Positions 1,791 through 12,984 of a stretch of DNA of 13,439 bases are shown here, in pieces (position 1 is the first letter of the stretch; every line of letters starts with the position of its first letter). Origin of the DNA: Myxococcota bacterium (GTDB taxonomy: Bacteria; Myxococcota; JACRCW01). The translations under genes and the position numbers were made by a program. The notes under the pieces are model-generated. The model was given only the letters and a program-made list of their open reading frames with translations. It made no database searches and had not been told where the DNA came from. The stretch spans positions 1 through 13,439 of the forward strand of contig JBFMGU010000283.1 of assembly GCA_040752415.1 (NCBI GenBank), given 5' to 3'.

Positions 1791-3983
1791 TCACGGGCAC
1801 TCCGTCAGCGTGGTGATCCAGTCCGAGATGAGCTGGACGCCCTGCTCGTCCACGCGCGTGGTGGCCAGCGGCGGCATGGCGTGCGCGTCCCGACGATCCA
1901 TGCGCGCACGGATGAGTGAACGCGCCGCGTCCCCGGGCAACAGGAGGCGCGCGCCGGTGATGCCCAGGTCTCCGAACAGCGGCGGCTCGTCGCACACGCC
2001 CAGGTCCGCGTCCGGCGTCCAGTGCAGGTAGTTCGCATTGCCCTGGCCGGTGCTCCCCGGGCGGTGACAGTACGCGCAGTTCACGTGCAGGTAGGCGCGG
2101 GCGCGTTCCGCCAGCGGCGCTTCACCGTCCAGCGCGGGGAGCGCGGGTTGCTGCTCCACCGACGGAGAGAGAGGCACCTGGAAGAGGCCGATGTGCTCCC
2201 AGGTCTTGAGCTGATTGGAGATGCGGTTGGTGGAATAGAGATGCTCACCGTTGAGCTGGCGCACTTCCAGCCCCAGGGAACGGCCCGCCGCACCGGTGTG
2301 ACAACGCATGCATTCCCCGCGACTGGGATGAATCCACGCATTGGCGCCCACCACCCGCGTCTTGCCGGCGGGCAGCAGCGCCGCGTCGGTCTCCGCGTCA
2401 TTCCACTCGTAGGAATAGCCGCCCCATTCCCCGTCGGGATGGCGCATCAGCAGACGCGTCTCCACCAGCTTCCCCTCCAGCCGGAAGCTCTTCATCAGCA
2501 CCGTGCCCACCGGCAGCTCCATGTCGCCGTTCTCGTCGATCTTGATGGTCTCTCCGTCGGGCAGCGCCATGAAGCGCTCCTTCACCGAGCCGTCCGACCA
2601 GAACGGGTCCATCACCGAGTAGGGAATCAGTCCCGCGGCGGGGCGCGTGGGATCGGCGGGGTCCACGCAGCCGGTCTGGCTCAGCGTCGTCGGAAAGGCG
2701 TCCTCGTTGGGGGTGCCGTCGGGTTCCAGGCGGTGGATGCCGCCGCGGTCGTAGCTGACCACGTAGACCTCTCCGACCTGGTCCTGCGCAAAGGTGGAGA
2801 TGTTCAGCCCGGAATCCAGCAGGACCTCCGCGGTGCGCTCTCCCGTGGCGCCATCCTCGACGACTCCCCAGACGCGACCGCTGCTGAAGTCGCCGTAGAT
2901 GTACACGCCCGCCAGCGCCGGGATGCGCGTGCCACGGTACACGTAGCCACCCGTCACGCTCTGTCCCTCGTTGTGACCGTAGTCCACCACCGGCTCGACA
3001 AAGGCGCCGGGGCAACTCTGGCGGTTGTAGCAGTGGGTCCCCTCCTTGATGTTCCACCCGTAGTTGCCCCCGCGCTGGATGATGTCCACCTCTTCCCAGA
3101 GGTTCTGTCCCACGTCGGCAACCCACAGCGCGCCCGTCTCGCGGTCAAAGCTGAAGCGCCAGGGATTGCGCAGGCCCCACGCGTAGATCTCGGGGAGGCC
3201 CTGGTCGCGGGTGAGCGGATTGTCGGCGGGAATGGCGTAGGCAGCTCCGTTGTCGACGTCAATGCGCAGCATCTTCCCGAGCAGCGACTGCAGGTCCTGG
3301 CCATTCTCCTCGGGGTCGCCGCCGCCGCCTCCGTCGCCAAAGCCGATGTAGAGGTAGCCGTCCGGACCGAAGGCGATCATGCCGCCATTGTGGTTGGAGG
3401 CGAACTGCGGGACGGTGAGCAGCACCTCCTCCGACGAGGGATCCACCTGCGTGCGCTCCGCATTGGTCCGGAAGCGCGAGATGACGCTGGTGAGCGCGTT
3501 CCCGTTCTGACCGGACGCGGTGTACGAGAGGAACACGTAACCGTTGCTGGCGAAGTTGGGATGGAACGCCATGCCCAGCAGCCCGGCCTCGCTGGGGTTG
3601 GACTCCACGCGGTCGATGATGTTGGCGAACACCGACGTATTGCTGACGGACGGATCGTTGGTGAACCGTTGCACGCGGCCCACCTTCTCCACGGCGTACC
3701 ATTGCGTGTTGTCGCCGGGCGCCTGGGTGAGGAGCACCACGCGTCGCAAGGTGGTCAGGTTGGGAAACGCGTCCACCAGCTCCACGTTCACCTCACCCTG
3801 CGGCCGCTCCGGCGCGCGACAACCCGGATTCGCGGGGCGGGTGTCCAGGCCGAACTCCGCGTGCACGGGTCCAGGCGGGTCTTCCGACGTGGGAGAGGGA
3901 GAGAAGGGATTGTTGGTGCAGCCGAGGCTCCCCAACGCGAGCGTCAGGGAGGTTGCGGCTGCGAGCCTGGCAGGGCTGCGCAT
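1791..3983 (-). CDS. Lipoprotein: PQQ-dependent glucose/sorbosone dehydrogenase-family propeller fused to an SO2930-like diheme c-type cytochrome domain
   Basis: 730 aa with lipobox LGSLG-C. GSDH motifs: EAGLLGMAFHPNF, NHNGGMIAFGPDGYLYIGFGDGG, LLGKMLRIDVD, GLRNPWRFSFD, GGNYGW. C-terminal module: FPTTLSQTG, FWSDGSVKERF, PVGTVLMKSF, VETRLL, CMRCH (2298-2312), RARAYLHVNCAYCH (CxxCH at 2064-2078), AMPPLA. Confidence 0.9.
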   Translation of the reverse strand: MRSPARLAAATSLTLALGSLGCTNNPFSPSPTSEDPPGPVHAEFGLDTRPANPGCRAPERPQGEVNVELVDAFPNLTTLRRVVLLTQAPGDNTQWYAVEKVGRVQRFTNDPSVSNTSVFANIIDRVESNPSEAGLLGMAFHPNFASNGYVFLSYTASGQNGNALTSVISRFRTNAERTQVDPSSEEVLLTVPQFASNHNGGMIAFGPDGYLYIGFGDGGGGGDPEENGQDLQSLLGKMLRIDVDNGAAYAIPADNPLTRDQGLPEIYAWGLRNPWRFSFDRETGALWVADVGQNLWEEVDIIQRGGNYGWNIKEGTHCYNRQSCPGAFVEPVVDYGHNEGQSVTGGYVYRGTRIPALAGVYIYGDFSSGRVWGVVEDGATGERTAEVLLDSGLNISTFAQDQVGEVYVVSYDRGGIHRLEPDGTPNEDAFPTTLSQTGCVDPADPTRPAAGLIPYSVMDPFWSDGSVKERFMALPDGETIKIDENGDMELPVGTVLMKSFRLEGKLVETRLLMRHPDGEWGGYSYEWNDAETDAALLPAGKTRVVGANAWIHPSRGECMRCHTGAAGRSLGLEVRQLNGEHLYSTNRISNQLKTWEHIGLFQVPLSPSVEQQPALPALDGEAPLAERARAYLHVNCAYCHRPGSTGQGNANYLHWTPDADLGVCDEPPLFGDLGITGARLLLPGDAARSLIRARMDRRDAHAMPPLATTRVDEQGVQLISDWITTLTECP

Positions 3984-4060
3984 GGGTGCACTTTAGCCTG
4001 GTTCGCGTGCCCGTCGTGAGCTTCGTGCGGGGGCCCCTGGGCCTGGGGCATCATGACGCC

Positions 4061-6661
4061 ATGTCCGGTCCATGCCGCGGGAGCCTGGTGAGACTCCTCG
4101 TCGCCTCTGCAGTCATCCCCCTCGTCCTTTCCGTCGGAGCGCGGGAGGCCGTCACGTTCGACCCGGGCCCACCCAACCTGGTGGTGCCCACGGGATTCAA
4201 GCCTGCGCCCGCACCCGTGTTCGAGCGCGCCCCGGAGTCCGACGTGCACCTGTGGTGGGGCGAGAAGCTGCTGATCCTGAGTGCCACCCATGGACTGCGG
4301 GTGTTGGAGGTCCCGGGCTTCCTGGATGTTGCCCTCACAACCACGCTGGCCACCTCGGGCCGGCCCGTGGCGCTCCTTGCCGACGCCAGCCGCGTTCATG
4401 CCGTCACCACGACGGGCGACCGCGCACCTCGCACCGTGGTCACCACCATCGACATGTCCCAACCACAACCGGCCACCCTGGGTGAGTGGAGCGTGTCCGG
4501 CCGGTGCGACTTCGCGAAGATGTTTGGCCAGGCGCTGGTGCTCAGTTGCGAACTGCTCGACGAGCCCAACGCGATGCAGCGGGTCCTCTCCTTGCGGCAG
4601 CAGGACGGTGCGTGGACCACCGTGGAGTCCCACGATTTTCCCTACACACCTGATGGCGAGTACACCTGGCACGCCGCCTCGAGCGACGACGCCCTCGTCC
4701 TGGCCACGGCGCTGTTCTCCCTCGAGGAAACCGCGAACGAGGATCGCTATCGCACCCGGATCACGCGGCTGGACTTCTCGTCGAGAGATGGCGCTTCCGT
4801 CCGAGGCGAAATCACCTTCCCCGGCAGGCCCCTCTTCTTCCACGAGGAAGGAGGTCTGCTGCGCGCGGTTGGCCAGCCGGAACACTTCAGCCAGGAGGTG
4901 CTGCTCACCCTGGTGGACGCGCACAACCCCGCCACGTTGGAGGAGGTGTCTCGCCTGACCGTGAGTGGAAGCCCGTGGGCAGCGGTCATGCGGGGTGACG
5001 ACGTCCTGCTCGCGTCCACCAGGCTGCAGTGGATTGAAGTGCACGACCCCACCCATCCCGTGGAGCGGGAGATGGATCCCACCGGCGACGTCGTCGGCAT
5101 GCCGGCGCTCATCGGCAATCACGTCCTCGCCACGGTAAGTCGCGCGCCAGATGTGGACCTTGCGCTTCTGGCGCTCGAGGGGGAACGGGCCCGGCTGGTG
5201 TCAACGTTGGCGGTATCGCCACCCTGGGACAGCTCGAACGGATGGATGCCGTTCAAGAACATTCTCGGGACCAACCTGGTCTTCCATCCCATCCAGCGTG
5301 GAACCGACACCGGCATGCGCCTGGTGGAGATGCGGCCGGATTCCCTTCTGCCACGCGGGGAGCTTCATGACGTGGGATGGGTGGAGCATGTCACCGCCGG
5401 GCTCGACGGGCGCCTGGTGACGACGTCCGATGCGCGCGTGATCCTGGTGGATGCCGCCAATCCGGACCAACCGCGGGAGGTGCAGCGGGTGGAGTTTGCG
5501 CGCACGGTGCTGCGACACGGCGCGCTGTCCAACGGGAGCCTGCTGCAGACGTCCTGGGATGAGATGGGCAATACCGTCGTCACTGTGCGGCGCGTGGATG
5601 AGCTCAACGACGGCGGGGCGCGCGCCCGGAAGGTGGTGCCCATGAACGTGGAGCACATGTTCATGCAGGGAGACCAGGCCCACCTGGTGGAGCTTCCCGC
5701 TGATGCTGCGTCGACGTCGTCCACGGCGATCCACGTGGTGACCCTGGACGCGAGCAATCCTGACCACCTCCAGGCGACCCAGGACCGCACCATCACCAGC
5801 AATGGACCGCTGTGGGGTCCGTATGGAGAGTCGCGCCCCGTGCTGATGGTGGGCACGACGTTGGTGGTGGCAGCGCCGGTCATGGACCCGTCGGTACCCG
5901 CCAACCGCGGTGGATGTGCCTGCGGCTATGTGGCGCTGGAGCCCCGCTATCACAGCGAAGTGGTCCTGTTGGACACCGCCGACCCTGCGGCCGTGGCGTC
6001 GACGCTGACGGTGTCACAGAACGAGTGGATCACGTCGCTGGTCCCGGCCGCGGACTCGCTGTTCGTCTCGGTGCACACCTGGGCCGACAACGGCCAACGA
6101 AGCATCACCCGCCTGGAAAGATGGGATCTCTCCGCGCCGCAGCAACCGCGACGGACCACGCTGGGAGAGGTGCCGGGGCCCGTGATCTCCGTCGTGGACG
6201 GCCGGCTCCTCCTGTCCCTTGAGCCTCCCGGCGACGAGGCGGCTCGCACCCAGATTCACGCCTTGCGCGCGACCGACGAAGGCATCCAGTTGCAGCGGAC
6301 CCATGTGCTCTCCGGTCGGGTGACCAGCGTGGGTTCTGGCGAAGGCGTGGCTTGCATGATCGCCGGCGCACCATTCGAGACGAAGCTGCGGTGCCTCACG
6401 CCGGACGCGGGAGAGGGCCCTCCGGTTGCGGTGGAAGTTGGGCCACTCTCCAGCGAGACCCAGGTGGTGACCGTGCAGGCCGACAAGGTGCTGTTGGCGG
6501 ATCATGATGGCGTGAGCTGGTTCGACCTCTCCGAGAACGGAACACCGACCGCGCGCGGATCCCAGGCGCTGCCCGGGTCCATCCTCGACGTGACCGTCGT
6601 CGACAACATCGCCGTCGTCGCCGCAGGTGCGCACGGAGCGTTCACGGTGCCGTTGCAGTGA
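4061..6661 (+). CDS. Large secreted beta-propeller repeat protein (LVIVD/Beta_propel-like), function unknown
   Basis: Long ORF. The start is moved from 3953, which overlaps the divergent gene, to ATG 4061, which precedes a hydrophobic signal-like segment (LVRLLVASAVIPLVLSVGA). Repeated blade-like motifs: TIDMSQPQP, LVDAHNPATL, EVHDPTHPV, LVDAANPDQP, TLDASNPDHL, WDLSAPQQP, and C-terminal VAAGAHGAFTVPL. The start codon is uncertain. Confidence 0.7.
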   Translation: MSGPCRGSLVRLLVASAVIPLVLSVGAREAVTFDPGPPNLVVPTGFKPAPAPVFERAPESDVHLWWGEKLLILSATHGLRVLEVPGFLDVALTTTLATSGRPVALLADASRVHAVTTTGDRAPRTVVTTIDMSQPQPATLGEWSVSGRCDFAKMFGQALVLSCELLDEPNAMQRVLSLRQQDGAWTTVESHDFPYTPDGEYTWHAASSDDALVLATALFSLEETANEDRYRTRITRLDFSSRDGASVRGEITFPGRPLFFHEEGGLLRAVGQPEHFSQEVLLTLVDAHNPATLEEVSRLTVSGSPWAAVMRGDDVLLASTRLQWIEVHDPTHPVEREMDPTGDVVGMPALIGNHVLATVSRAPDVDLALLALEGERARLVSTLAVSPPWDSSNGWMPFKNILGTNLVFHPIQRGTDTGMRLVEMRPDSLLPRGELHDVGWVEHVTAGLDGRLVTTSDARVILVDAANPDQPREVQRVEFARTVLRHGALSNGSLLQTSWDEMGNTVVTVRRVDELNDGGARARKVVPMNVEHMFMQGDQAHLVELPADAASTSSTAIHVVTLDASNPDHLQATQDRTITSNGPLWGPYGESRPVLMVGTTLVVAAPVMDPSVPANRGGCACGYVALEPRYHSEVVLLDTADPAAVASTLTVSQNEWITSLVPAADSLFVSVHTWADNGQRSITRLERWDLSAPQQPRRTTLGEVPGPVISVVDGRLLLSLEPPGDEAARTQIHALRATDEGIQLQRTHVLSGRVTSVGSGEGVACMIAGAPFETKLRCLTPDAGEGPPVAVEVGPLSSETQVVTVQADKVLLADHDGVSWFDLSENGTPTARGSQALPGSILDVTVVDNIAVVAAGAHGAFTVPLQ

Positions 6662-6663
6662 CC

Positions 6664-7668
6664 CTAATGGAGCAACCGCGGCGTTCCGCTGGAGGAGCGC
6701 GTGAGCATCCAGCCCAGCAACGCGGGCACCGCGGCCATCCCCAGCGCCTTGACCCGTCGACGCATCCGTGACGGCGGGTGACGCCAGCCGCCACTCACGC
6801 CCAGCCCATCATGCATGGGATGGAACAGCGCGCCGTCTCCGCGATGCGCCGGCCGGTGATGATCCACGTGTCCGCGTGCCACCGCCCGCGCCACAATCTG
6901 CTCCCCGAGCGCCGGCGCCAACCGGTATGGCATGGAGAGCACCCGCGCGGGGCCACCCACGAATGTCTCGCGCCGCGGAGAGCGCAACACCTCGACGATC
7001 TTCGACGCCACGCGCTCCGGCGCATACACCGGCGCCATGGGTTTCACCTCGTGGTCCAGGTAGTTGGCGGCGTGCGCGAAGAACGGCGTGTCCACGGCCG
7101 CGGGCAGGACCGTGCAGACGTGGATGTCGTTCAGCCCCTGCAGCAACAGCTCCTGGCGCAGACAGTCTCCCAGCACCCGCACGCCGTGCTTGCTGATGAC
7201 GTACGCGCTTGCCCACGGCTGGCCAATCTTGCCCACCACGGAAGACACGTTCACGAGGACACCGTGGCCACGCTGTCGGAACACGCGCAGCGCCTCCCGC
7301 GCGCCGTGGATGGTGCCAAACAGGTCGGTCTCCAGCGCGCGGCGGTAGGCAGCGGCGGGAATCTCGTCGAACCAGCCGTACAGCCCCACCGCGGCGTTGT
7401 TGATCCACGCATCCATCCGGCCGAGCTCCTGCATCACGCGCTCCGCCAGGGCGTGCACCTCCTCTTCGCGCGCCACGTCGGTGGGAACCACCAGCGCGCG
7501 ACCACCGAGCCGCCGGCACTGGAGCGCCACCTCCTCCAGCGCGTCTTCCCGTCGGGCGGCCAAGACCACGATGGCGCCACGACGGGCCAGGGCCAGGGCG
7601 GTGGCGCGTCCAATGCCGCTGGATGCTCCGGTGATGACCACGACGGCGTTGCGGAAATGCCGGATCAT
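6664..7668 (-). CDS. SDR family NAD(P)-dependent oxidoreductase with C-terminal hydrophobic tail
   Basis: Motifs ITGASSGIG, LAARR, WINNAA, NVSS and catalytic YVISK (YxxxK). ATG at 7668 is preceded by the RBS AGGGAGGAA, giving 334 aa. Confidence 0.92.
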   Translation of the reverse strand: MIRHFRNAVVVITGASSGIGRATALALARRGAIVVLAARREDALEEVALQCRRLGGRALVVPTDVAREEEVHALAERVMQELGRMDAWINNAAVGLYGWFDEIPAAAYRRALETDLFGTIHGAREALRVFRQRGHGVLVNVSSVVGKIGQPWASAYVISKHGVRVLGDCLRQELLLQGLNDIHVCTVLPAAVDTPFFAHAANYLDHEVKPMAPVYAPERVASKIVEVLRSPRRETFVGGPARVLSMPYRLAPALGEQIVARAVARGHVDHHRPAHRGDGALFHPMHDGLGVSGGWRHPPSRMRRRVKALGMAAVPALLGWMLTRSSSGTPRLLH

Positions 7669-7873
7669 GGGTTCCTCCCTCGTCGCCCGCGGGAATGCGG
7701 TCCCTGCCGCGGATCTACCGACGAGAACGGGGCGCTCATCCGCCCGCACGTCCGAGAACACGCCGGGCCATCACGGTTGCCGCCCCCCCGCGTCGTCGCT
7801 ACCTCGCATGCAGGGTCTGCGCGCCGACGAGGGTGCACCAGCCACGACGGCGCTTCACGCGGAGGTTGGCGTC

Positions 7874-8207: not shown

Positions 8208-8224
8208 CTGGCACAGGAATGGCA
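8208..8224 (+). promoter_or_regulatory. Candidate sigma-54 (-24/-12) promoter upstream of the exoD-like gene
   Basis: CTGGCACAGGAATGGCA has GG at 8210-8211 and GC at 8222-8223 with exact 10-nt spacing. The -24 box TGGCAC is perfect; the -12 box TGGCA differs from TTGCA by one base. Confidence 0.45.
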
Positions 8225-8239
8225 GGTTCAACCGGTGGC

Positions 8240-8974
8240 ATGAAGAGCGCGCCTGCTCAGAGCCAACCTCGCATCCCCGGGAGCGTTGGCGAAGGTCACG
8301 TGGGAGAGGCCTCCCACCGGAGACACGCGTTCCCGCTGCCGTCGGATGATGACCCGCAGCCGCACATGGTGCCGTTTGCGCATGGCGTGCCCATGCCACG
8401 GTTGCTGCGCGCGCTGGCGGTGAGACTGCGCGGCCGCACGTTGACGGTGGAGGAGATCATCGCGCTGCTGGGCGAGGACGGCCTGCTCCTGATGGCGGTG
8501 ATCTGCGCGTCCCCGTTCCTGCTGCCGGCGTCCATTCCCGGCATCAGCACGGTGGCGGGGACCATCATCCTGCTGGTGGGGATGGCGGTGGTGGCGGGCC
8601 ATACGCCTGCGCTCCCGTCGAGACTGCTGCATGCGCGCGTGGGTGGCGAGGGCTGGTCCAAGGCACTGATGATGGCCGCGCGCGTGGTGAAGCCGCTGGG
8701 TCGCTCCCGTCAGCCCAGCCGCAGCGCGCAGGTGGGTCTGCCCCTGCACGGGCTCTCATTGGCCATCAACGGCGTGGTGCTGCTCATGCCGCTGCCCATC
8801 CCGCTGTCCAACTTCCTGCCGGGCTGGGGCGCCATGCTGCTGGCCACGGGCTTGCTCAAGCAGGGTCGCAGGCTGCTTGTGGCCGGGCACTTCTCCACGT
8901 TCATTGGCGTGGCGTACGTGGCGCTGACCGCAGTGCTGGGCGTGGAAGGCGCGGTGCGCATGCTGCACCACTGA
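8240..8974 (+). CDS. exoD: ExoD-family exopolysaccharide biosynthesis membrane protein
   Basis: LTVEEIIALLGEDGLLLMAVICASPFLLPASIPGISTVAG...PALPSRLL and LLMPLPIPLSNFLPGWGAMLLATGLL match the ExoD family pattern. The start is uncertain (8219, 8240, 8300, 8366 or 8393); the conserved part begins near 8400. Confidence 0.85.
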   Translation: MKSAPAQSQPRIPGSVGEGHVGEASHRRHAFPLPSDDDPQPHMVPFAHGVPMPRLLRALAVRLRGRTLTVEEIIALLGEDGLLLMAVICASPFLLPASIPGISTVAGTIILLVGMAVVAGHTPALPSRLLHARVGGEGWSKALMMAARVVKPLGRSRQPSRSAQVGLPLHGLSLAINGVVLLMPLPIPLSNFLPGWGAMLLATGLLKQGRRLLVAGHFSTFIGVAYVALTAVLGVEGAVRMLHH

Positions 8975-9139
8975 GCCCGTTCCTCGACGTCACTTCCCCG
9001 GCGCAGTTGAGCACCACGTCCCCGGTGATGTCCGTGCCCCAGGCCGCGGCCGGCTCCAACGTGGAGGCCTTGCGGATCACAAACCACGACACCGCCTCCG
9101 GTCACGCCACCTTCGTCGACGATGCGGAGGCGCGCCGGC

Positions 9140-9541
9140 TCACTCCTCCGGCTCCAGCGTGACCGTCACCTTCCGTGGCTCGGCCCTGCGCTTGGGCGCG
9201 GTCACCGTGAGGAATTCCCCACGCTGCGTGGCATGGATGGCGTCCGGGTCAATGACGGCGGACATCTGGAAGGAGCGCTCCAGGATCTGGCCCCCCTCGG
9301 TCACGGCGCGCACCAGGAGCGCCGCGCCCTGCACCAGCACCTCCGTGCGCGTGGGGTCAAACCCGGGGAGATAGGCGGTCACCGTCAGGGCCCGCGCATC
9401 CTCGTCCATGGTCATGCGCGCAGCCTCCAACGGGGAGTCTTCCGTCACCCAGCCAATCACCGGCCATGCCACGTCGCCCAGGGACGCGGTGACCGACTCG
9501 TCCACTTCCACTGCGGACAGCAAACCGTTTCTGGTTGCCAT
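9140..9541 (-). CDS. Hsp20/alpha-crystallin family small heat shock protein
   Basis: 133 aa. MDEDARALTVTAYLPGFDPTRTEVLVQGAALLVRA...ERSFQMSAVIDPDAIHATQRGEFLTVTAPK follows the alpha-crystallin strand pattern. C-terminal RKVTV is an IxI-like motif. RBS-like AAGGGTGA lies upstream. Confidence 0.85.
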   Translation of the reverse strand: MATRNGLLSAVEVDESVTASLGDVAWPVIGWVTEDSPLEAARMTMDEDARALTVTAYLPGFDPTRTEVLVQGAALLVRAVTEGGQILERSFQMSAVIDPDAIHATQRGEFLTVTAPKRRAEPRKVTVTLEPEE

Positions 9542-9577
9542 GACGTCACCCTTGGCTGGACCCGCCAGCTTCCGGGC

Positions 9578-9606
9578 AAGGAAGGAACGAAATGCCCTTT
9601 CGTCAA
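9578..9606 (-). promoter_or_regulatory. Candidate sigma70-family promoter for hsp20 with overlapping palindrome
   Basis: Minus strand: TTGACG (9606-9601), 17 nt, then TTCCTT (9583-9578, a weak -10). The palindrome ACGAAA-N5-TTTCGT at 9587-9603 overlaps the -35 and spacer. Confidence 0.35.
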
Positions 9607-9643
9607 GGCGTTTTCCGACGGGGAAGCGTCAGCGGAGACGCCG

Positions 9644-10999
9644 TCATTCAATACACGTGCGGTATTCCTCGGGAATCTGCGTGATCGGATAGACCACGAT
9701 GAAGTTGAAGCACATCTCGTCCTCGGTCTCCTCGCCAAAGGTCACACGTGCGCCGGTGTCGTTGTTGTACACGCACGTGGTGGTGAGGACGTCATTGCGC
9801 TCAATACGGACCGGCGGTGCGTGCACGTACGACGCCTGCAGGCCGCTGTCCCAGGGATCCACGCGGATCAGGGTCTCGGCGACACCAGAACTGCGCGTGA
9901 TGGTGGTCTCCACGCTGCGCCCCAGCAGGTGCATGTGCGGAGCGCTGGAGAGCACGTAGACGGGGTCCTGCATGCGCGCGGTGCAGGTCCCGGTGACGGC
10001 GTGGTCCACGGCACCGGCGGGAATGTCGATGTCCACCGAGCCCAGCGTCACCACCCCCGCCACCTGCGCGCGCGGTGCCGGCTCCGTGCACAACGCCACA
10101 CCGCTGCGGTCCATGGCGTCCGAGTAGCCGGGCACGTTCCAGTAGTGGAGCTGCAGGATGTACCAGCTGTTGGAGCCGCCGAGCTCCAGGCTGACGCCTT
10201 CCGGCATCACCACGTTGCCTCCACCCGGCGCCCAGCCCGTCACGAACGTGGCGTCGGAAGGCATGTTGCACGGCCCCACCTCTCCGTCCGTCTGCGGCGT
10301 GTGCGTGCGGTAGAGGATCCAGTGGTGCACCACGCGCTCGTCGTCGATGATGGGCGCCCAGGCCACGGCCTGCTCGCTGTCGGTGAAGGGCGAGTTGAAC
10401 GCGAAGCACTCGTACAGGTTGTCCGCCGTCTCCGGGACGTGGAAGCCCGCAATGGTTCCCGCGGCGTGCGCGCGGAAGAAGTGCTGCGGCTCGCACGGGA
10501 GCTCGTCGGGACCCACGCCGCCGCTGGAGGAGCTGCTGCTGGTGCCGCCGTCGGGAGGGTCGCAGCTGGCCTCGGTGCGCGCCGGTGCACCCTGCGCAAT
10601 CCACCCATCCAGCGTGGCCAGCTCCGCCTCGGTGAGGCCGCCGCCGGGCGGCATGGGTGCGTTCTCGTCGTGGATGCGCACGGACATGAGCTCGTAGACG
10701 TTGCGCTCCGGATCACTCACCGCCGGGCGCTGCACGTGCTCATGCGTCATCAGCTGCATGGGCGCGCCGTAACGCGGGGGACTGTTGTGACAGCGCTGGC
10801 AGTGGGCCTGGAGGATGGCGTCCACCGCACAGGGCAGCGGCGTGTCTCCACCGGATGACGACGACGCGGATGAGCTTGTGCTCCCCCCCGACGAAGACGA
10901 CGTGGAGCCTGACGAGGTTCCGCCCTCCGGCTCCGTCGTCGAAGAGGCACACCCTGCCCACAACATCCCAATGACGAAGACCCCTGCTGCATGCCGCAT
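9644..10999 (-). CDS. Lipoprotein: monoheme cytochrome c domain fused to a copper type II (PHM/dopamine beta-monooxygenase-like) monooxygenase
   Basis: ATG 10999 follows an AGGAG RBS, giving 451 aa. Lipobox LWAG-C, then a Ser/Gly linker, CQRCH (10787-10801) with downstream PMPP, and a second Ser linker. Copper motifs: VHHWILY (HH 10322-10327), LQLHYWN (H 10145-10147), APHMHLLGR (HMH 9929-9937), FGEETEDEMCF (EMC 9710-9718). Confidence 0.9.
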   Translation of the reverse strand: MRHAAGVFVIGMLWAGCASSTTEPEGGTSSGSTSSSSGGSTSSSASSSSGGDTPLPCAVDAILQAHCQRCHNSPPRYGAPMQLMTHEHVQRPAVSDPERNVYELMSVRIHDENAPMPPGGGLTEAELATLDGWIAQGAPARTEASCDPPDGGTSSSSSSGGVGPDELPCEPQHFFRAHAAGTIAGFHVPETADNLYECFAFNSPFTDSEQAVAWAPIIDDERVVHHWILYRTHTPQTDGEVGPCNMPSDATFVTGWAPGGGNVVMPEGVSLELGGSNSWYILQLHYWNVPGYSDAMDRSGVALCTEPAPRAQVAGVVTLGSVDIDIPAGAVDHAVTGTCTARMQDPVYVLSSAPHMHLLGRSVETTITRSSGVAETLIRVDPWDSGLQASYVHAPPVRIERNDVLTTTCVYNNDTGARVTFGEETEDEMCFNFIVVYPITQIPEEYRTCIE

Positions 11000-11333
11000 C
11001 ACGTCGCTCCTGTTCCTTGCCCCTCCAGATCTTGACACGGCAGCGACGCCAGAACGAAAGACGACCATCTCGACGGTCACGCCACACGCACGACGACCAC
11101 GTAGCATCGGCGACGGACCTCGCTGCACCCTTCGGATCGAGCAACGGCGCGCTGCCGCGTTGCCCGAGCCCCTTCACCAGCGAGGTGGCGCGCAGCCGCG
11201 GCGGTTCGGGGAAAGCCCGGGCGAGGCGCGGCGTGGAACCGACGCTGGAGCGCTGACGCGGGCCGGAGACGCGCCGGGAAATCCCGTTTATTTTTGGCCT
11301 GTTGCGAGAATCCCGCAAGATCCCGGGTGAAGA

Positions 11334-11360
11334 TGTCGATTGGGGTCGCGCCCGTTCGTC
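11334..11360 (+). promoter_or_regulatory. ECF42-type sigma factor promoter
   Basis: TGTCGA (11334-11339), 17 nt, then CGTC (11357-11360). This matches the ECF42-group consensus as I recall it (TGTCGA / CG[A/T]C) and lies upstream of an operon containing a DGPF-family gene, the typical ECF42 target. Confidence 0.75.
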
Positions 11361-11434
11361 GTGCGGGGTGGAGCCGGGATGCAGGTCCCGGTTTGACCGC
11401 CGCAGGCCACCCAGCAGATACCGGAGCAAGCCCC

Positions 11435-12220
11435 ATGAGCACTGTCACTTCCAAAGACGGCACCACCATTGCGTTCGAGCGACTGGGTGCCGGCCCCGCA
11501 CTCATCCTCGTCGACGGCGCGATGTGCAGCCGCGAGTTCGGCCCCATGCCCAAGCTCGCGCCCCTCCTGGCCAAGCACTTCACCGTGTTCATGTACGACC
11601 GTCGTGGTCGCGGCGGGAGCAAGGACACGCAGCCCTATGCGCGCGAGCGCGAGGTGGAGGACATTGCGGCGCTCATCGAGGCGGCGGGCGGGAAGGCGTA
11701 CGTGGTGGGACTCTCGTCGGGCGCGGCGTTGGCGATGGAGGCGGCGGCCAGCGGTCTCAGCATTCCGCGTCTTGCCGTCTATGAGCCGCCGTACATGGTC
11801 GACGACCCGCGCGACCACACCGGTCACGAGGCCCACCTCAAGCGCCTCGTCGCCGCGGGCCAGCGTGGTGCGGCGGTGAAGTACTTCATGCGCGACATGG
11901 TGGGCATCCCGGCCCCGTTCGTCTTCCTCATGCGCGTGCTGCCGCCGGGCATGTGGCGCAAGCTGGAGGGCGTGGCGCACACGCTTCCCTACGACGCCGC
12001 GATCATGAACGAGTTCAAGGTGCCCACGTCGCGCCTCGCCGCCATCACATCTCCCACACTGGCGATGAATGGCGAGAAGTCCGAAGCGCGGCTCAAGAAG
12101 GCGACGCACACCGTGGCCAGCGCCATCCCCAACGCGCAGCACCGCACGCTCAAGGGGCAGACGCACAACGTGAACCCGGAAGTGCTCACCCCGGAGCTGG
12201 TGGAGTTCTTCGCCGCCTGA
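11435..12220 (+). CDS. Alpha/beta fold hydrolase
   Basis: ATG 11435 follows a GGAG RBS, giving 261 aa. Motifs: VTSKDGTTIAFERLGAGPALILVDGA, YDRRGRGGS, nucleophile elbow GLSSG, YEPP and C-terminal GQTH. Confidence 0.92.
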   Translation: MSTVTSKDGTTIAFERLGAGPALILVDGAMCSREFGPMPKLAPLLAKHFTVFMYDRRGRGGSKDTQPYAREREVEDIAALIEAAGGKAYVVGLSSGAALAMEAAASGLSIPRLAVYEPPYMVDDPRDHTGHEAHLKRLVAAGQRGAAVKYFMRDMVGIPAPFVFLMRVLPPGMWRKLEGVAHTLPYDAAIMNEFKVPTSRLAAITSPTLAMNGEKSEARLKKATHTVASAIPNAQHRTLKGQTHNVNPEVLTPELVEFFAA

Positions 12221-12252: not shown

Positions 12253-12984
12253 ATGCGATTCATCATCATGCACAAGACCAACGCACAATGGGAGGCCGAC
12301 GCCATCCCCAGCAAGGAGCTGGTTGCCACCGTGGGTGGGCTGCTGGGAGAGATGACCAGGGCCGGCGTGCTGCTGAGCGGGGAAGGCCTGCGGGCAACGT
12401 CCCACGGCGTGCGCCTGAACTTCTCCGACGGGAAACGCACCATCACGCGCGGGCCCTACCAGGGCACCCGCGAGATTCCCGCGGTGTTCAGCATCCTCAA
12501 TGTCGAATCCATCGACGAGGCGGTGGACTGGGCATCGCGCTCGGTGGAGGGTGTCGACGACGTGGAGATTGACATCCGCCCCGTCACGGAGCCCTGGGAC
12601 ATTGGCATGGCGCCCAAGCCGGAAGGGCGGAAGACCACGCGCTACATGGCGCTGCGCAAGGCCAACGACGCATACGAGGCCGGGACGCCACCCTCGCCGA
12701 AGCAGAAGGCCGCCATGGCCCGACTCATCGACGAGACCACGCGCTCCGGCGTTCACCTCGTCACCGAAAAGCTCGAGCCGTCCTCCAAGGGCAGGCGCTA
12801 CCGCGTCACCCAGGGAAAGCTGTCCATCACCGACGGACCGTTCGCGGAGTCCAAGGAGATGATCGCCGGCTACGTGTTGTTCCGCGCCAATTCCCTGGAG
12901 GAAGCCGCCGAGTGGGCACCGCGCTACGCCGTCGCGGTGGACTGCCACGAGCTGGACCTGCGTCAGGTTGCCGACGAGCTCTGA
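12253..12984 (+). CDS. YciI/YCII-related (DGPF-type) protein with two tandem domains
   Basis: ATG 12253 follows a GGAG RBS, giving 243 aa. Domain 1: MRFIIMHK...AGVLLSGEGLRATSHGVR...ITRGPY...EIDIRPV. Domain 2: RYMALRK...EKLEPSSKGRR...ITDGPFAESKEMIAGY...ELDLRQV. Confidence 0.92.
   Translation: MRFIIMHKTNAQWEADAIPSKELVATVGGLLGEMTRAGVLLSGEGLRATSHGVRLNFSDGKRTITRGPYQGTREIPAVFSILNVESIDEAVDWASRSVEGVDDVEIDIRPVTEPWDIGMAPKPEGRKTTRYMALRKANDAYEAGTPPSPKQKAAMARLIDETTRSGVHLVTEKLEPSSKGRRYRVTQGKLSITDGPFAESKEMIAGYVLFRANSLEEAAEWAPRYAVAVDCHELDLRQVADEL

Follow-up and report, generated by a model that had tools for sequence, protein, structure and literature searches.

The gene described here occupies positions 9644-10999 on the minus strand of a 13,439-nucleotide Myxococcota contig, which is called the window below. 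Its placement on the minus strand was a point absent from the original prediction; unless another strand is given, all features below lie on the minus strand. The reading frame is intact, with 451 codons and a stop, and runs from an ATG at 10999 to a stop codon at 9644-9646. The 451-amino acid product combines a predicted lipoprotein signal, a cytochrome c domain and a bicopper monooxygenase that resembles the animal enzymes PHM and DBH. An AGGAG that reads as a ribosome-binding-site-like sequence (11007-11011) is located 7 nt 5' of the ATG, and the GC fractions at the three codon positions (0.63/0.54/0.87) are as usual for coding sequence here. An antisense open reading frame on the plus strand (9122-10858) is long but has an inverted codon-position GC pattern, and was rejected as a shadow ORF. 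A weak terminator-like hairpin was located 35 nt past the stop codon (9594-9609), with two such sites found compared with 0.8 expected from shuffles. This weak hairpin faintly suggests that the gene is transcribed alone, as a monocistronic message.

The N-terminus was predicted to be a signal peptide with a lipobox (LWAG-C; 10949-10999), based upon sequence and conservation. It is laid out as MRH-AAGVFVIGMLWAG-C17, and the lipobox region reads MRHAAGVFVIGMLWAGC, with Cys17 as the predicted lipidated residue. The prediction follows the lipobox pattern rule, namely a signal peptide ending in an invariant Cys. Cys17 is kept in 116 of the 120 closest relatives that were aligned, the remaining four having gaps, and a lipobox-like pattern was observed in 66 out of 78 genomic copies. 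A tether of 38 amino acids rich in Ser, Gly and Thr follows (residues 18-55; 10835-10948) and is predicted to be disordered, with pLDDT values below 50. A second Ser/Gly-rich linker spans residues 147-162 (10514-10561), of which residues 151-158 also have pLDDT values below 50. The lipobox and the two linkers named in the original prediction were thus all found when their coordinates were checked, and the proposed surface or periplasmic location agrees with the export signal and its lipobox. On the best reading, the product would be a Sec-exported, lipid-anchored enzyme of the periplasm (or of the cell surface) that carries two redox modules on one chain.

Between the two linkers, residues 56-146 (10562-10834) were assigned to a class I c-type cytochrome domain of about 90 amino acids by profile, model and conservation, and the domain is flanked by conserved Cys57 and Cys146. 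The haem c attachment motif CQRCH (residues 67-71; 10787-10801) supplies C67, C70 and the proximal ligand H71. Met116, in a PMPP motif (residues 115-118; 10646-10657), is the predicted distal ligand from sequence and conservation, and it lies 45 residues beyond H71; the C-terminal helix spans residues 124-135 in the AlphaFold model. These are the motifs from which a His/Met-type cytochrome had originally been proposed, and they are strongly conserved. C67, C70 and H71 are present in 119 of the 120 closest relatives, the other having a gap, and Met116 is likewise present in 119. The CxxCH motif is invariant in 69 out of 69 domain sequences, and an M-P motif was found in all 78 of the genomic copies that bear CxxCH. 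Pfam support for the cytochrome is weaker for the single protein, for which PF13442 matched at an E-value of 0.0029 and 18.4 bits, under the 27-bit cut-off, than at the level of the family, where 12 of 25 relatives matched at E<=0.01 (best 8.9e-7). The family profile also matched cytochrome c6 (3dr0) at 8.3e-5 over positions 56-136. The isolated domain was predicted as four helices with a pLDDT of 94.4. A Foldseek search with this isolated domain gave no match at E<=0.001; the top ranks were almost all class I cytochromes, at weak scores (TM 0.43-0.49), the best being cytochrome c6 at E 0.095 and TM 0.43-0.46. TtX183A (8q1v) was among these weak structural neighbours, at rank 28 and E 1.4, a similarity that is not significant. 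Stand-alone copies of the domain were sought with region 52-150 as the query, in a word search that uses one sequence and has low sensitivity; none turned up, which is weak evidence. A precomputed cytochrome Pfam domain was present on only two of the 120 listed relatives; routine annotation mostly misses the haem module.

The sub-threshold Pfam score of the single protein, the weak Foldseek support and a genomic relative (L024) in which the motif reads CQRCR, with the haem His missing, would all be compatible with an N-terminal domain that is no working electron carrier, but either a structural or docking module that has no haem, or a sensor that uses haem to gate the enzyme. Such a role is nevertheless very improbable. 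The CxxCH motif and the distal Met are conserved as strongly as the copper ligands described below (119 versus 119-120 of the closest 120 relatives), and a multi-haem protein, P0235, contains three tandem copies of the same domain and matches Pfam cytochrome c at E 3.9e-13.

The rest of the chain consists of the two monooxygenase halves, in the order N then C, each supported by Pfam, profile and model. The N-terminal copper domain (residues 163-308; 10076-10513) would hold CuH, the electron-transfer site, and matched Cu2_monooxygen (PF01082) at residues 186-289 with an E-value of 1e-13 and 52.1 bits against a cut-off of 30. The C-terminal copper domain (residues 309-451; 9647-10075) would hold CuM, the site of O2 and substrate, and matched Cu2_monoox_C (PF03712) at residues 314-442 with 1.5e-21 and 76.9 bits against a cut-off of 23. 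Both halves therefore pass the curated cut-offs, as the original prediction had proposed to check, and both were found in 25 out of 25 relatives scanned; in NCBIfam no model matches the protein. Every copper ligand that had been claimed is also present. H225 and H226 (10322-10327), two of the three CuH ligands, and the third, H285 in LQLHY (10145-10147), align with the HH and LxVHY motifs of PHM and DBH. In the CuM half, the alignment gives H355 and H357 of an HMH motif (residues 355-357; 9929-9937) and the methionine ligand M429 in EDEMC (9713-9715). Met356, between the two histidines, is invariant and specific to this family, the aligned PHM and DBH sequences having Thr there. All six ligands were aligned in the matches of the family profile to human DBH (9.7e-32) and to rat PHM (about 7e-27). 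H225, H285, H355, H357 and M429 are present in 120 out of 120 closest relatives and H226 in 119, and all six ligands were found in 146 of the 148 gap-free rows among 150 wider representatives, which were obtained by clustering at 50%. Judged on sequence, the copper ligands and the domain features are far beyond chance. His178 looked family-specific, yet it is His in just 93 of the 150 representatives. Gln283, which we take to be the counterpart of PHM Gln170, is kept in 116 of the 120 closest relatives, whereas 78 of the 150 wider representatives have Glu at this position, and no claim is made for it.

AlphaFold predicted the whole chain with a pLDDT of 88.5 and a pTM of 0.82. From residue 173 to 437 the model is all-beta and forms a two-domain beta-sandwich. 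With the whole model, Foldseek returned PHM (E 6.9e-20, TMt 0.73, about 26% identity) and DBH (1.2e-18), with the next matches only at E>=1.4e-5, leaving rat PHM and human DBH as the only real matches. Atlas models of other clusters align across residues 54-451. Since the pTM is close to the share of ordered residues (about 385 of 451), the model implies that the cytochrome domain is placed in a single rigid frame with the copper core.

Homology searches returned 552 homologues and 340 genomic copies, almost all from Myxococcota, with several paralogues per genome being common. There were 365 clusters at E<=1e-30 and roughly 2,500 relatives at E<=1e-10. Cytochrome and copper domains co-occur in 119 of the 120 closest relatives. 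One CxxCH precedes the copper domains in 78 of 82 genomic copies, and three of the remaining four copies are truncated at the end of a contig. Among the 150 cluster representatives, 132 contain CxxCH and 18 do not. Three of these 18 were inspected: in two the sequence starts within the cytochrome domain, and in the third the motif reads CxxxCH. The remaining 15 could be fragments or could truly lack the cytochrome. A search for longer homologues gave just two weak matches as candidates for larger fusions. Look-alikes in Acidobacteriota and Planctomycetota carry EF-hand, TPR or thioredoxin-like fusions. The gene is thus a member of a large Myxococcota family with paralogues and is not unique. 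Its copper domains are already labelled by automatic pipelines, and the novelty lies in an unstudied architecture rather than in a unique gene. In the copy of the PDB that was searched, by profile and by Foldseek, no bacterial member of the PHM/DBH fold was found. A literature search whose coverage excluded most subscription journals found no work on bacterial PHM/DBH-like enzymes or on the cytochrome fusion, and passages of PMC8812541 and PMC2938197 yielded nothing pertinent.

The gene context was surveyed at 79 loci by clustering the coding-like open reading frames and scanning representatives. Ser/Thr kinases carrying TPR repeats recurred at 28 of the 79 loci, sigma-54 activators at 11, hybrid histidine kinases at nine and alpha/beta hydrolases at five; these gene types are all common in Myxococcota, and none of them keeps to one position. 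The genes that flank the present one in the window do not recur beside homologues, apart from a single weak SDR match. Because the neighbours are common types in variable positions and those of the window do not recur, an operon partner was ruled out as an explanation, and no conserved neighbour gene able to supply a separate reductase was found at the 79 loci. Pfam and NCBIfam scans found no PAL/NHL lyase or biosynthetic cluster in the window, in keeping with the original prediction, and no such lyase was found among the recurrent neighbours at the 79 loci. The window also encodes, at 1791-3983 on the minus strand, a glucose/sorbosone dehydrogenase of the PQQ type with a dihaem cytochrome c at its C-terminus.

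Insofar as the direction of electron flow is not deducible from sequence alone, the copper domains could conversely act as a dehydrogenase or oxidase on a substrate, whose electrons would then leave for the respiratory chain through the tethered cytochrome c. Many periplasmic dehydrogenase-cytochrome c fusions operate in this way, and the PQQ-type dehydrogenase just described is one such fusion in the same window. This reverse direction is judged improbable. All six ligands of the O2-activating site, including the CuM Met, are kept in 146 of 148 representatives, and we know of no enzyme with the PHM/DBH fold that is a dehydrogenase.

The residues of PHM that bind the carboxylate of the peptidyl-glycine substrate, which we take to be R240, N316 and Y318, align to A353 (Phe in 84 of the 120 closest relatives), F431 and F433. 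F433 is present in 120 out of 120 closest relatives and F431 in 107, and both are hydrophobic residues located where PHM has its substrate pocket. A true bacterial PHM orthologue, alpha-hydroxylating glycine-extended peptides in the first step of amidation, would share the PHM-like fold and ligands seen here. It is the most doubtful of the alternatives, given the replaced carboxylate-binding positions, the lack of a PAL/NHL lyase in the window and among recurrent neighbours at the 79 loci, and a family profile on which DBH outscores PHM. The earlier judgement that peptide amidation is not supported at this locus therefore stands. Because the carboxylate-binding positions are Ala or Phe and Phe, the substrate is more likely to be hydrophobic or aromatic than a glycine-extended peptide, as far as the alignment indicates.

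The same pocket bears on a further alternative, in which cytochrome c would drive the reduction of O2, H2O2, superoxide, nitrite or NO at CuM, for detoxification or for respiration-like chemistry in the periplasm. Solved structures show nitrite, azide, CO and O2 bound at CuM of PHM (3mib, 3mic, 3mlj, 1sdw), and no substrate-supplying gene cluster lies nearby. The pairing of a cytochrome c with a copper enzyme is also the domain logic of the tethered copper nitrite reductases (PMC13324648, PMC7201279). Small-molecule reduction is nonetheless unlikely, though less so than reverse electron flow, because hydrophobic residues are conserved at the pocket position (F433 in 120 and F431 in 107 of 120 relatives) and several paralogues per genome fit organic substrates better.

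The reading preferred here is that the protein is probably a periplasmic lipoprotein hydroxylase whose tethered haem supplies one electron at a time. The analysis shows the domain order, the fold, the ligand sets, their co-conservation across the family, the export signal and the absence of a partner gene. Haem c would be held through C67 and C70, with H71 and M116 as axial ligands, and would receive single electrons from the periplasmic cytochrome or respiratory pool. From the haem each electron would pass to CuH (H225, H226 and H285), with the haem taking the role that ascorbate has in the animal enzymes, and then across the inter-domain cleft to CuM (H355, H357 and M429). There O2 would be activated and a C-H bond of the bound substrate hydroxylated, at the cost of two haem-delivered electrons per turnover. 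In this scheme the loading with haem and copper, the direction in which electrons flow, the hydroxylase chemistry and the class of substrate are assigned by homology. We infer the haem-to-CuH wiring from the sequence features, and only by inference from the fused cytochrome c would ascorbate be replaced by another donor. Most bacteria are not known to make ascorbate. A His/Met haem c usually has a high potential, so that reduction of CuM may be uphill, which counts against the scheme. For the family as a whole, the chances are about even that it constitutes an ascorbate-independent branch of PHM/DBH enzymes coupled to the respiratory chain, comprising lipid-anchored periplasmic C-H hydroxylases in which both electrons would arrive through a covalently tethered haem c that docks onto the CuH domain.

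Amidated peptide hormones and noradrenaline are the products of PHM and DBH, and the way in which electrons cross from CuH to CuM, over about 11 A of solvent-filled cleft, has long been a question in copper enzymology. To our knowledge it has been studied almost only in these two animal enzymes, both of which require ascorbate. A bacterial version with a tethered haem would allow the entry of electrons to be triggered and followed optically, and would exemplify PHM/DBH chemistry that operates without ascorbate. The family, with its 365 clusters at E<=1e-30, offers a large pool of expressible homologues, and it points to uncharacterized oxidative chemistry, periplasmic or at the cell surface, in Myxococcota. 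If the family is such an ascorbate-independent branch, this would be a natural PHM/DBH system with a built-in optical reporter of electron transfer, and such chemistry would be applied to hydrophobic substrates by bacteria, mainly by predatory Myxococcota whose genomes hold several paralogues each. The family may in that case lie near the root of the eukaryotic enzymes.

Of the characterized systems, PHM (EC 1.14.17.3; PDB 1phm, 1sdw, 6ala) shares the two beta-sandwich domains with one copper each, and its CuH HH and H and CuM HxH and Met ligands align with those found here. The Cys pattern around EMC and TTC would also fit the PHM disulfides. In contrast to PHM, the present protein is bacterial, is a predicted lipoprotein and carries a c-type cytochrome on the N-terminal side of the copper domains; it lacks a PAL partner, its counterparts of the carboxylate-binding residues are replaced, and its electron donor is presumably the haem rather than ascorbate. 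DBH, grouped with tyramine beta-monooxygenase (EC 1.14.17.1; PDB 4zel), is the best match of the family profile (9.7e-32) and has the six ligands in common, and the EMCxNY/F motif seen here is nearer to that of DBH (EMCVNY) than to that of PHM (EMCNLY). Neither the DOMON domain nor the C-terminal dimerization domain of DBH was found by Pfam, and the chain ends nine residues past the Cu2_monoox_C match. The cytochrome c domain of this bacterial, predicted periplasmic protein stands in place of the N-terminal DOMON of DBH.

For the proposed wiring, one precedent is a copper nitrite reductase to which cytochrome c is naturally tethered as its donor (PMC13324648). In such enzymes, for example RpNiR of Ralstonia pickettii, a class I cytochrome c is likewise fused through a linker as a built-in one-electron donor (PMC13324648, PMC7201279, PMC6038957). 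There, however, the fusion is C-terminal and the fold is that of a cupredoxin; a type 1 copper accepts the electrons, nitrite is reduced, and there is no sequence kinship to the present protein. A bacterial c-type cytochrome domain has also been described to reduce copper LPMOs (PMC8981238). In that case CjX183 or TtX183, a small domain of this kind, feeds a copper monooxygenase in place of ascorbate, but the domain is part of another, multi-domain protein and works in trans, and its partner is a copper enzyme of the mononuclear histidine-brace type.

The target gene lies on the minus strand (9644-10999), with its ATG at 10999 and its stop codon at 9644-9646, and encodes a product of 451 amino acids. 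An AGGAG motif is present 7 nt upstream of the ATG, and a weak hairpin follows the stop codon. A longer start, the GTG at 11128 used in the listed open reading frame, was disfavored because its 43 additional residues do not resemble a signal peptide and because homologues of the protein also open with a short MR... signal. The GC contents at the three codon positions (0.63/0.54/0.87) agree with those of the remaining real genes in this window of 67-70% GC. An antisense reading frame of 578 amino acids (9122-10858, plus strand) shows the mirror pattern (0.86/0.51/0.67) and was rejected as a shadow frame; most genes in this GC-rich window have a comparable shadow frame on the opposite strand. 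The translation comprises a signal peptide with a lipobox (MRHAAGVFVIGMLWAG-C17), a Ser/Gly/Thr tether of 38 residues, a cytochrome-type domain of about 90 residues (P56-C57 to C146, with CQRCH at 67-71 and PMPP at 115-118), a second Ser/Gly linker of 16 residues, and a copper core of about 290 residues containing HH at 225-226, LQLHY (H285), PHMH at 355-357, and EDEMC (M429). Every feature on which the original prediction of a cytochrome c-copper monooxygenase fusion was based was found in this translation. The many conserved cysteines are consistent with an oxidizing compartment, and c-type haem motifs need Sec export and periplasmic maturation.

Both monooxygenase halves of the predicted fusion were matched by Pfam well over the curated cut-offs, Cu2_monooxygen at residues 186-289 (E 1e-13) and Cu2_monoox_C at residues 314-442 (E 1.5e-21). 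A family profile built from 25 relatives matched human DBH (4zel) at 9.7e-32 and rat PHM at about 7e-27. In the profile alignments, the HH pair and third His assigned to the electron-transfer copper CuH (H225, H226, H285) and the HxH pair and EMC Met assigned to the O2/substrate copper CuM (H355, H357, M429) all coincided with the corresponding DBH and PHM residues, which bears out the ligand set first proposed. These ligands were retained in 119-120 of 120 aligned relatives, and all six were present in 146 of the 148 gap-free sequences among 150 cluster representatives. The AlphaFold model of the protein, computed with the 120 relatives, had a mean pLDDT of 88.5 and a pTM of 0.82, with pLDDT below 50 only at the signal and tether (1-48) and at 151-158. 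When this model was compared with the PDB using Foldseek, ranks 1-31 (29 among the matches listed) were all PHM or DBH, with E values from 6.9e-20 to 1.2e-14 and TMt of about 0.7; the next matches were unrelated jelly-roll proteins at E>=1.4e-5. The protein has every defining feature of the PHM/DBH superfamily that can be assessed in silico. No bacterial structure of this fold was found in the PDB copy searched by profile and Foldseek. A Met separates the two CuM histidines (H-M-H, 9929-9937, minus strand) in all 120 relatives and in 139 of the 150 representatives, whereas the PHM and DBH sequences in the profile alignment have Thr, and this Met is a hallmark of the family.

Evidence for the cytochrome domain was modest for the target alone and good at the family level. 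The target matched PF13442 at E 0.0029 (18.4 bits, under the 27-bit cut-off) and no NCBIfam model, but 12 of the 25 relatives matched PF13442 at E<=0.01 (best 8.9e-7), four matched PF00034, and the family profile matched cytochrome c6 (3dr0) at 8.3e-5 over positions 56-136. The isolated domain, modeled with 69 sequences, formed four helices (pLDDT 94.4, pTM 0.86). Its Foldseek neighbors were nearly all class I c-type cytochromes (c6, c553, c554, c550, c552, TtX183A); none was significant (best E 0.095, TM 0.43-0.49), a result that an apo model would be expected to give and that speaks neither for nor against the assignment. Met116 is conserved in 119 of the 120 relatives, and all 78 genomic copies have an M-P motif 30-75 residues past CxxCH. 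A second conserved Met, M81 of GAPM, is present in 70 of the 78 and replaced in several, which makes M116 the likely sixth (distal) haem ligand. Cys57 and Cys146 flank the domain and may form a disulfide. Both recur in every repeat of P0235, a 611-residue protein from the representative-library search in which three tandem LPC...CxxCH...GAPM...PMPP domains and two more CxxCH motifs occur without copper domains. Pfam calls P0235 a cytochrome c (3.9e-13). These tandem copies indicate that the same domain also exists as a multi-haem 'wire', and P0235 could be a redox partner.

The original prediction had also proposed a census of the architecture, and the fusion of CxxCH with copper domains was found in most of the sequences surveyed. 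Exactly one CxxCH precedes the copper domains in 78 of 82 homologous reading frames at 79 genomic loci, and three of the four exceptions (L055, L056, L074) are cut by a contig end. The fourth (L024:8001-9149, from a Polyangiaceae MAG) is the one full-length genomic relative reading CQRCR, in which the His is lost but the distal Met and every copper motif remain; a sequencing error could account for this, or the protein could be a haem-less variant. CxxCH was present in 132 of the 150 best cluster representatives. Three of the 18 that lack it were inspected: P0189 and P0241 start inside the cytochrome domain, and P0199 carries CxxxCH (CAGTCH). The other 15 are 261-382 amino acids long, and the part of each that matches best begins no earlier than query residue 81; they may be fragments or genuinely domain-less. 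A non-redox role for the cytochrome-like module is possible but less likely; the haem motif is present in 119 of the 120 relatives (the remaining one is a gap), level with the copper ligands. The domain anatomy is genuine and far from random, and it has been conserved as one unit.

The target belongs to a large unstudied family and is no singular oddity. A near-length search scored 8000 candidates and found 552 homologues at E<=0.001. Of these, the 120 listed are of similar length and 45-56% identical. Each has both copper Pfam domains, whereas only two had a precomputed cytochrome Pfam domain. Those with names are entered as 'hypothetical protein' and come from Myxococcota, Nannocystaceae, Minicystis or 'Deltaproteobacteria'. 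An exhaustive representative search returned 7191 clusters at E<=0.001, of which 2542 remain at <=1e-10 and 365 at <=1e-30. In species-representative genomes, 340 stretches coded for a relative, from which 79 loci in 57 assemblies were retained. All but two are titled as myxobacterial or deltaproteobacterial lineages (77/79), the exceptions being an 'uncultured proteobacterium' (L037) and a contig-end fragment from a Methyloceanibacter MAG (L056). Up to six loci occur in one Nannocystaceae MAG (assembly CAYXVR01), and three loci (L009, L034, L037) hold two copies each, which indicates growth of the family through duplication within genomes. Look-alikes in the Atlas, a predicted-structure and feature resource, also came from Acidobacteriota and Planctomycetota (structure, residues 54-451) and from Actinomycetota (feature search). 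Some structure look-alikes add EF-hand, TPR or AhpC-TSA/Redoxin domains. Taken as leads, they suggest that a broader range of redox modules has been fused to the same copper core.

Real genes in the window were called by GC3 and Pfam/NCBIfam. At lower window coordinates than the target lie genes for a protein with DUF4388 and DnaJ-like domains (138-1790, plus), a glucose/sorbosone dehydrogenase (1791-3983, minus), a 902-residue protein (3953-6661, plus), an SDR (6664-7761, minus), ExoD (8219-8974, plus) and a 133-residue protein (9140-9541, minus). An alpha/beta hydrolase gene (11294-12220, plus) is divergent from the target, and a YCII-domain gene ends at 12984 (plus). The dehydrogenase is of the PQQ type (PF07995, E 2.2e-49), and its C-terminal part is a dihaem cytochrome c of the SO2930 family (TIGR03806, 268.8 bits, under the 313-bit cut-off). 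This second cytochrome-fused periplasmic oxidoreductase might in principle supply the same pool of cytochromes; it is not conserved beside the target's homologues at the 79 loci. The 902-residue protein had no Pfam or NCBIfam match. In the Atlas it resembles Beta_propel/LVIVD repeat proteins of Myxococcota (feature score 0.90, structure TM 0.77), and the listed TTG probably lies upstream of its real start, since the Atlas record begins at residue 46. The 133-residue protein starts 102 bp past the target stop on the same strand; its Hsp20/alpha-crystallin match is weak (E 2.6e-4, 21.5 bits, cut-off 20.8), and it is probably a cytoplasmic protein with no relation to the target. Across the 79 loci no neighbor held a conserved position, and none of the window's own neighbors recurred beside a homologue, so the enzyme seems to stand alone, in keeping with an electron-transfer module of its own. 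At 28 of the 79 loci, Ser/Thr protein kinases occur no more than 8 kb from the homologue, frequently with TPR or AAA_16 domains and some only 130-600 bp away; this may be background, as Myxococcota are very rich in such kinases.

The best available interpretation of these motifs is an electron relay in which haem c would take single electrons from periplasmic carriers and reduce CuH, CuH would reduce CuM, and CuM would activate O2 and hydroxylate a substrate C-H bond, as in PHM and DBH. The ordered fraction of the protein (about 385 of 451 residues) nearly equals the pTM of 0.82, from which we infer that AlphaFold placed the cytochrome domain rigidly against the core. Electron flow in the reverse direction, from a dehydrogenase reaction to the cytochrome, and reduction of a small molecule at CuM are both possible but less likely than this relay. 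True peptide amidation is likewise possible but less likely; in line with the original prediction, no PAL-type lyase or biosynthetic cluster was found among the window genes. PHM residues R240, N316 and Y318, the carboxylate triad, correspond to A353 (Phe in 84 of 120 relatives), F431 (107/120) and F433 (120/120) in the alignment, which makes a glycine-extended peptide an unlikely substrate. The Ala and Phe positions would form a hydrophobic pocket closer to DBH's EMCVNY.

No literature on bacterial PHM/DBH-like enzymes or on the cytochrome fusion was found in a search that covered only a minority of subscription journals. The target differs from PHM proper, which has the carboxylate triad and a PAL partner, and from DBH proper, which has DOMON and dimerization domains; all of these are absent. 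In functional terms, two systems offer the nearest analogies to the haem module: cytochrome c-tethered copper nitrite reductases (PMC13324648, PMC7201279, PMC6038957), and the cytochrome domain CjX183, which takes over from ascorbate as the reductant of bacterial LPMOs (PMC8981238).
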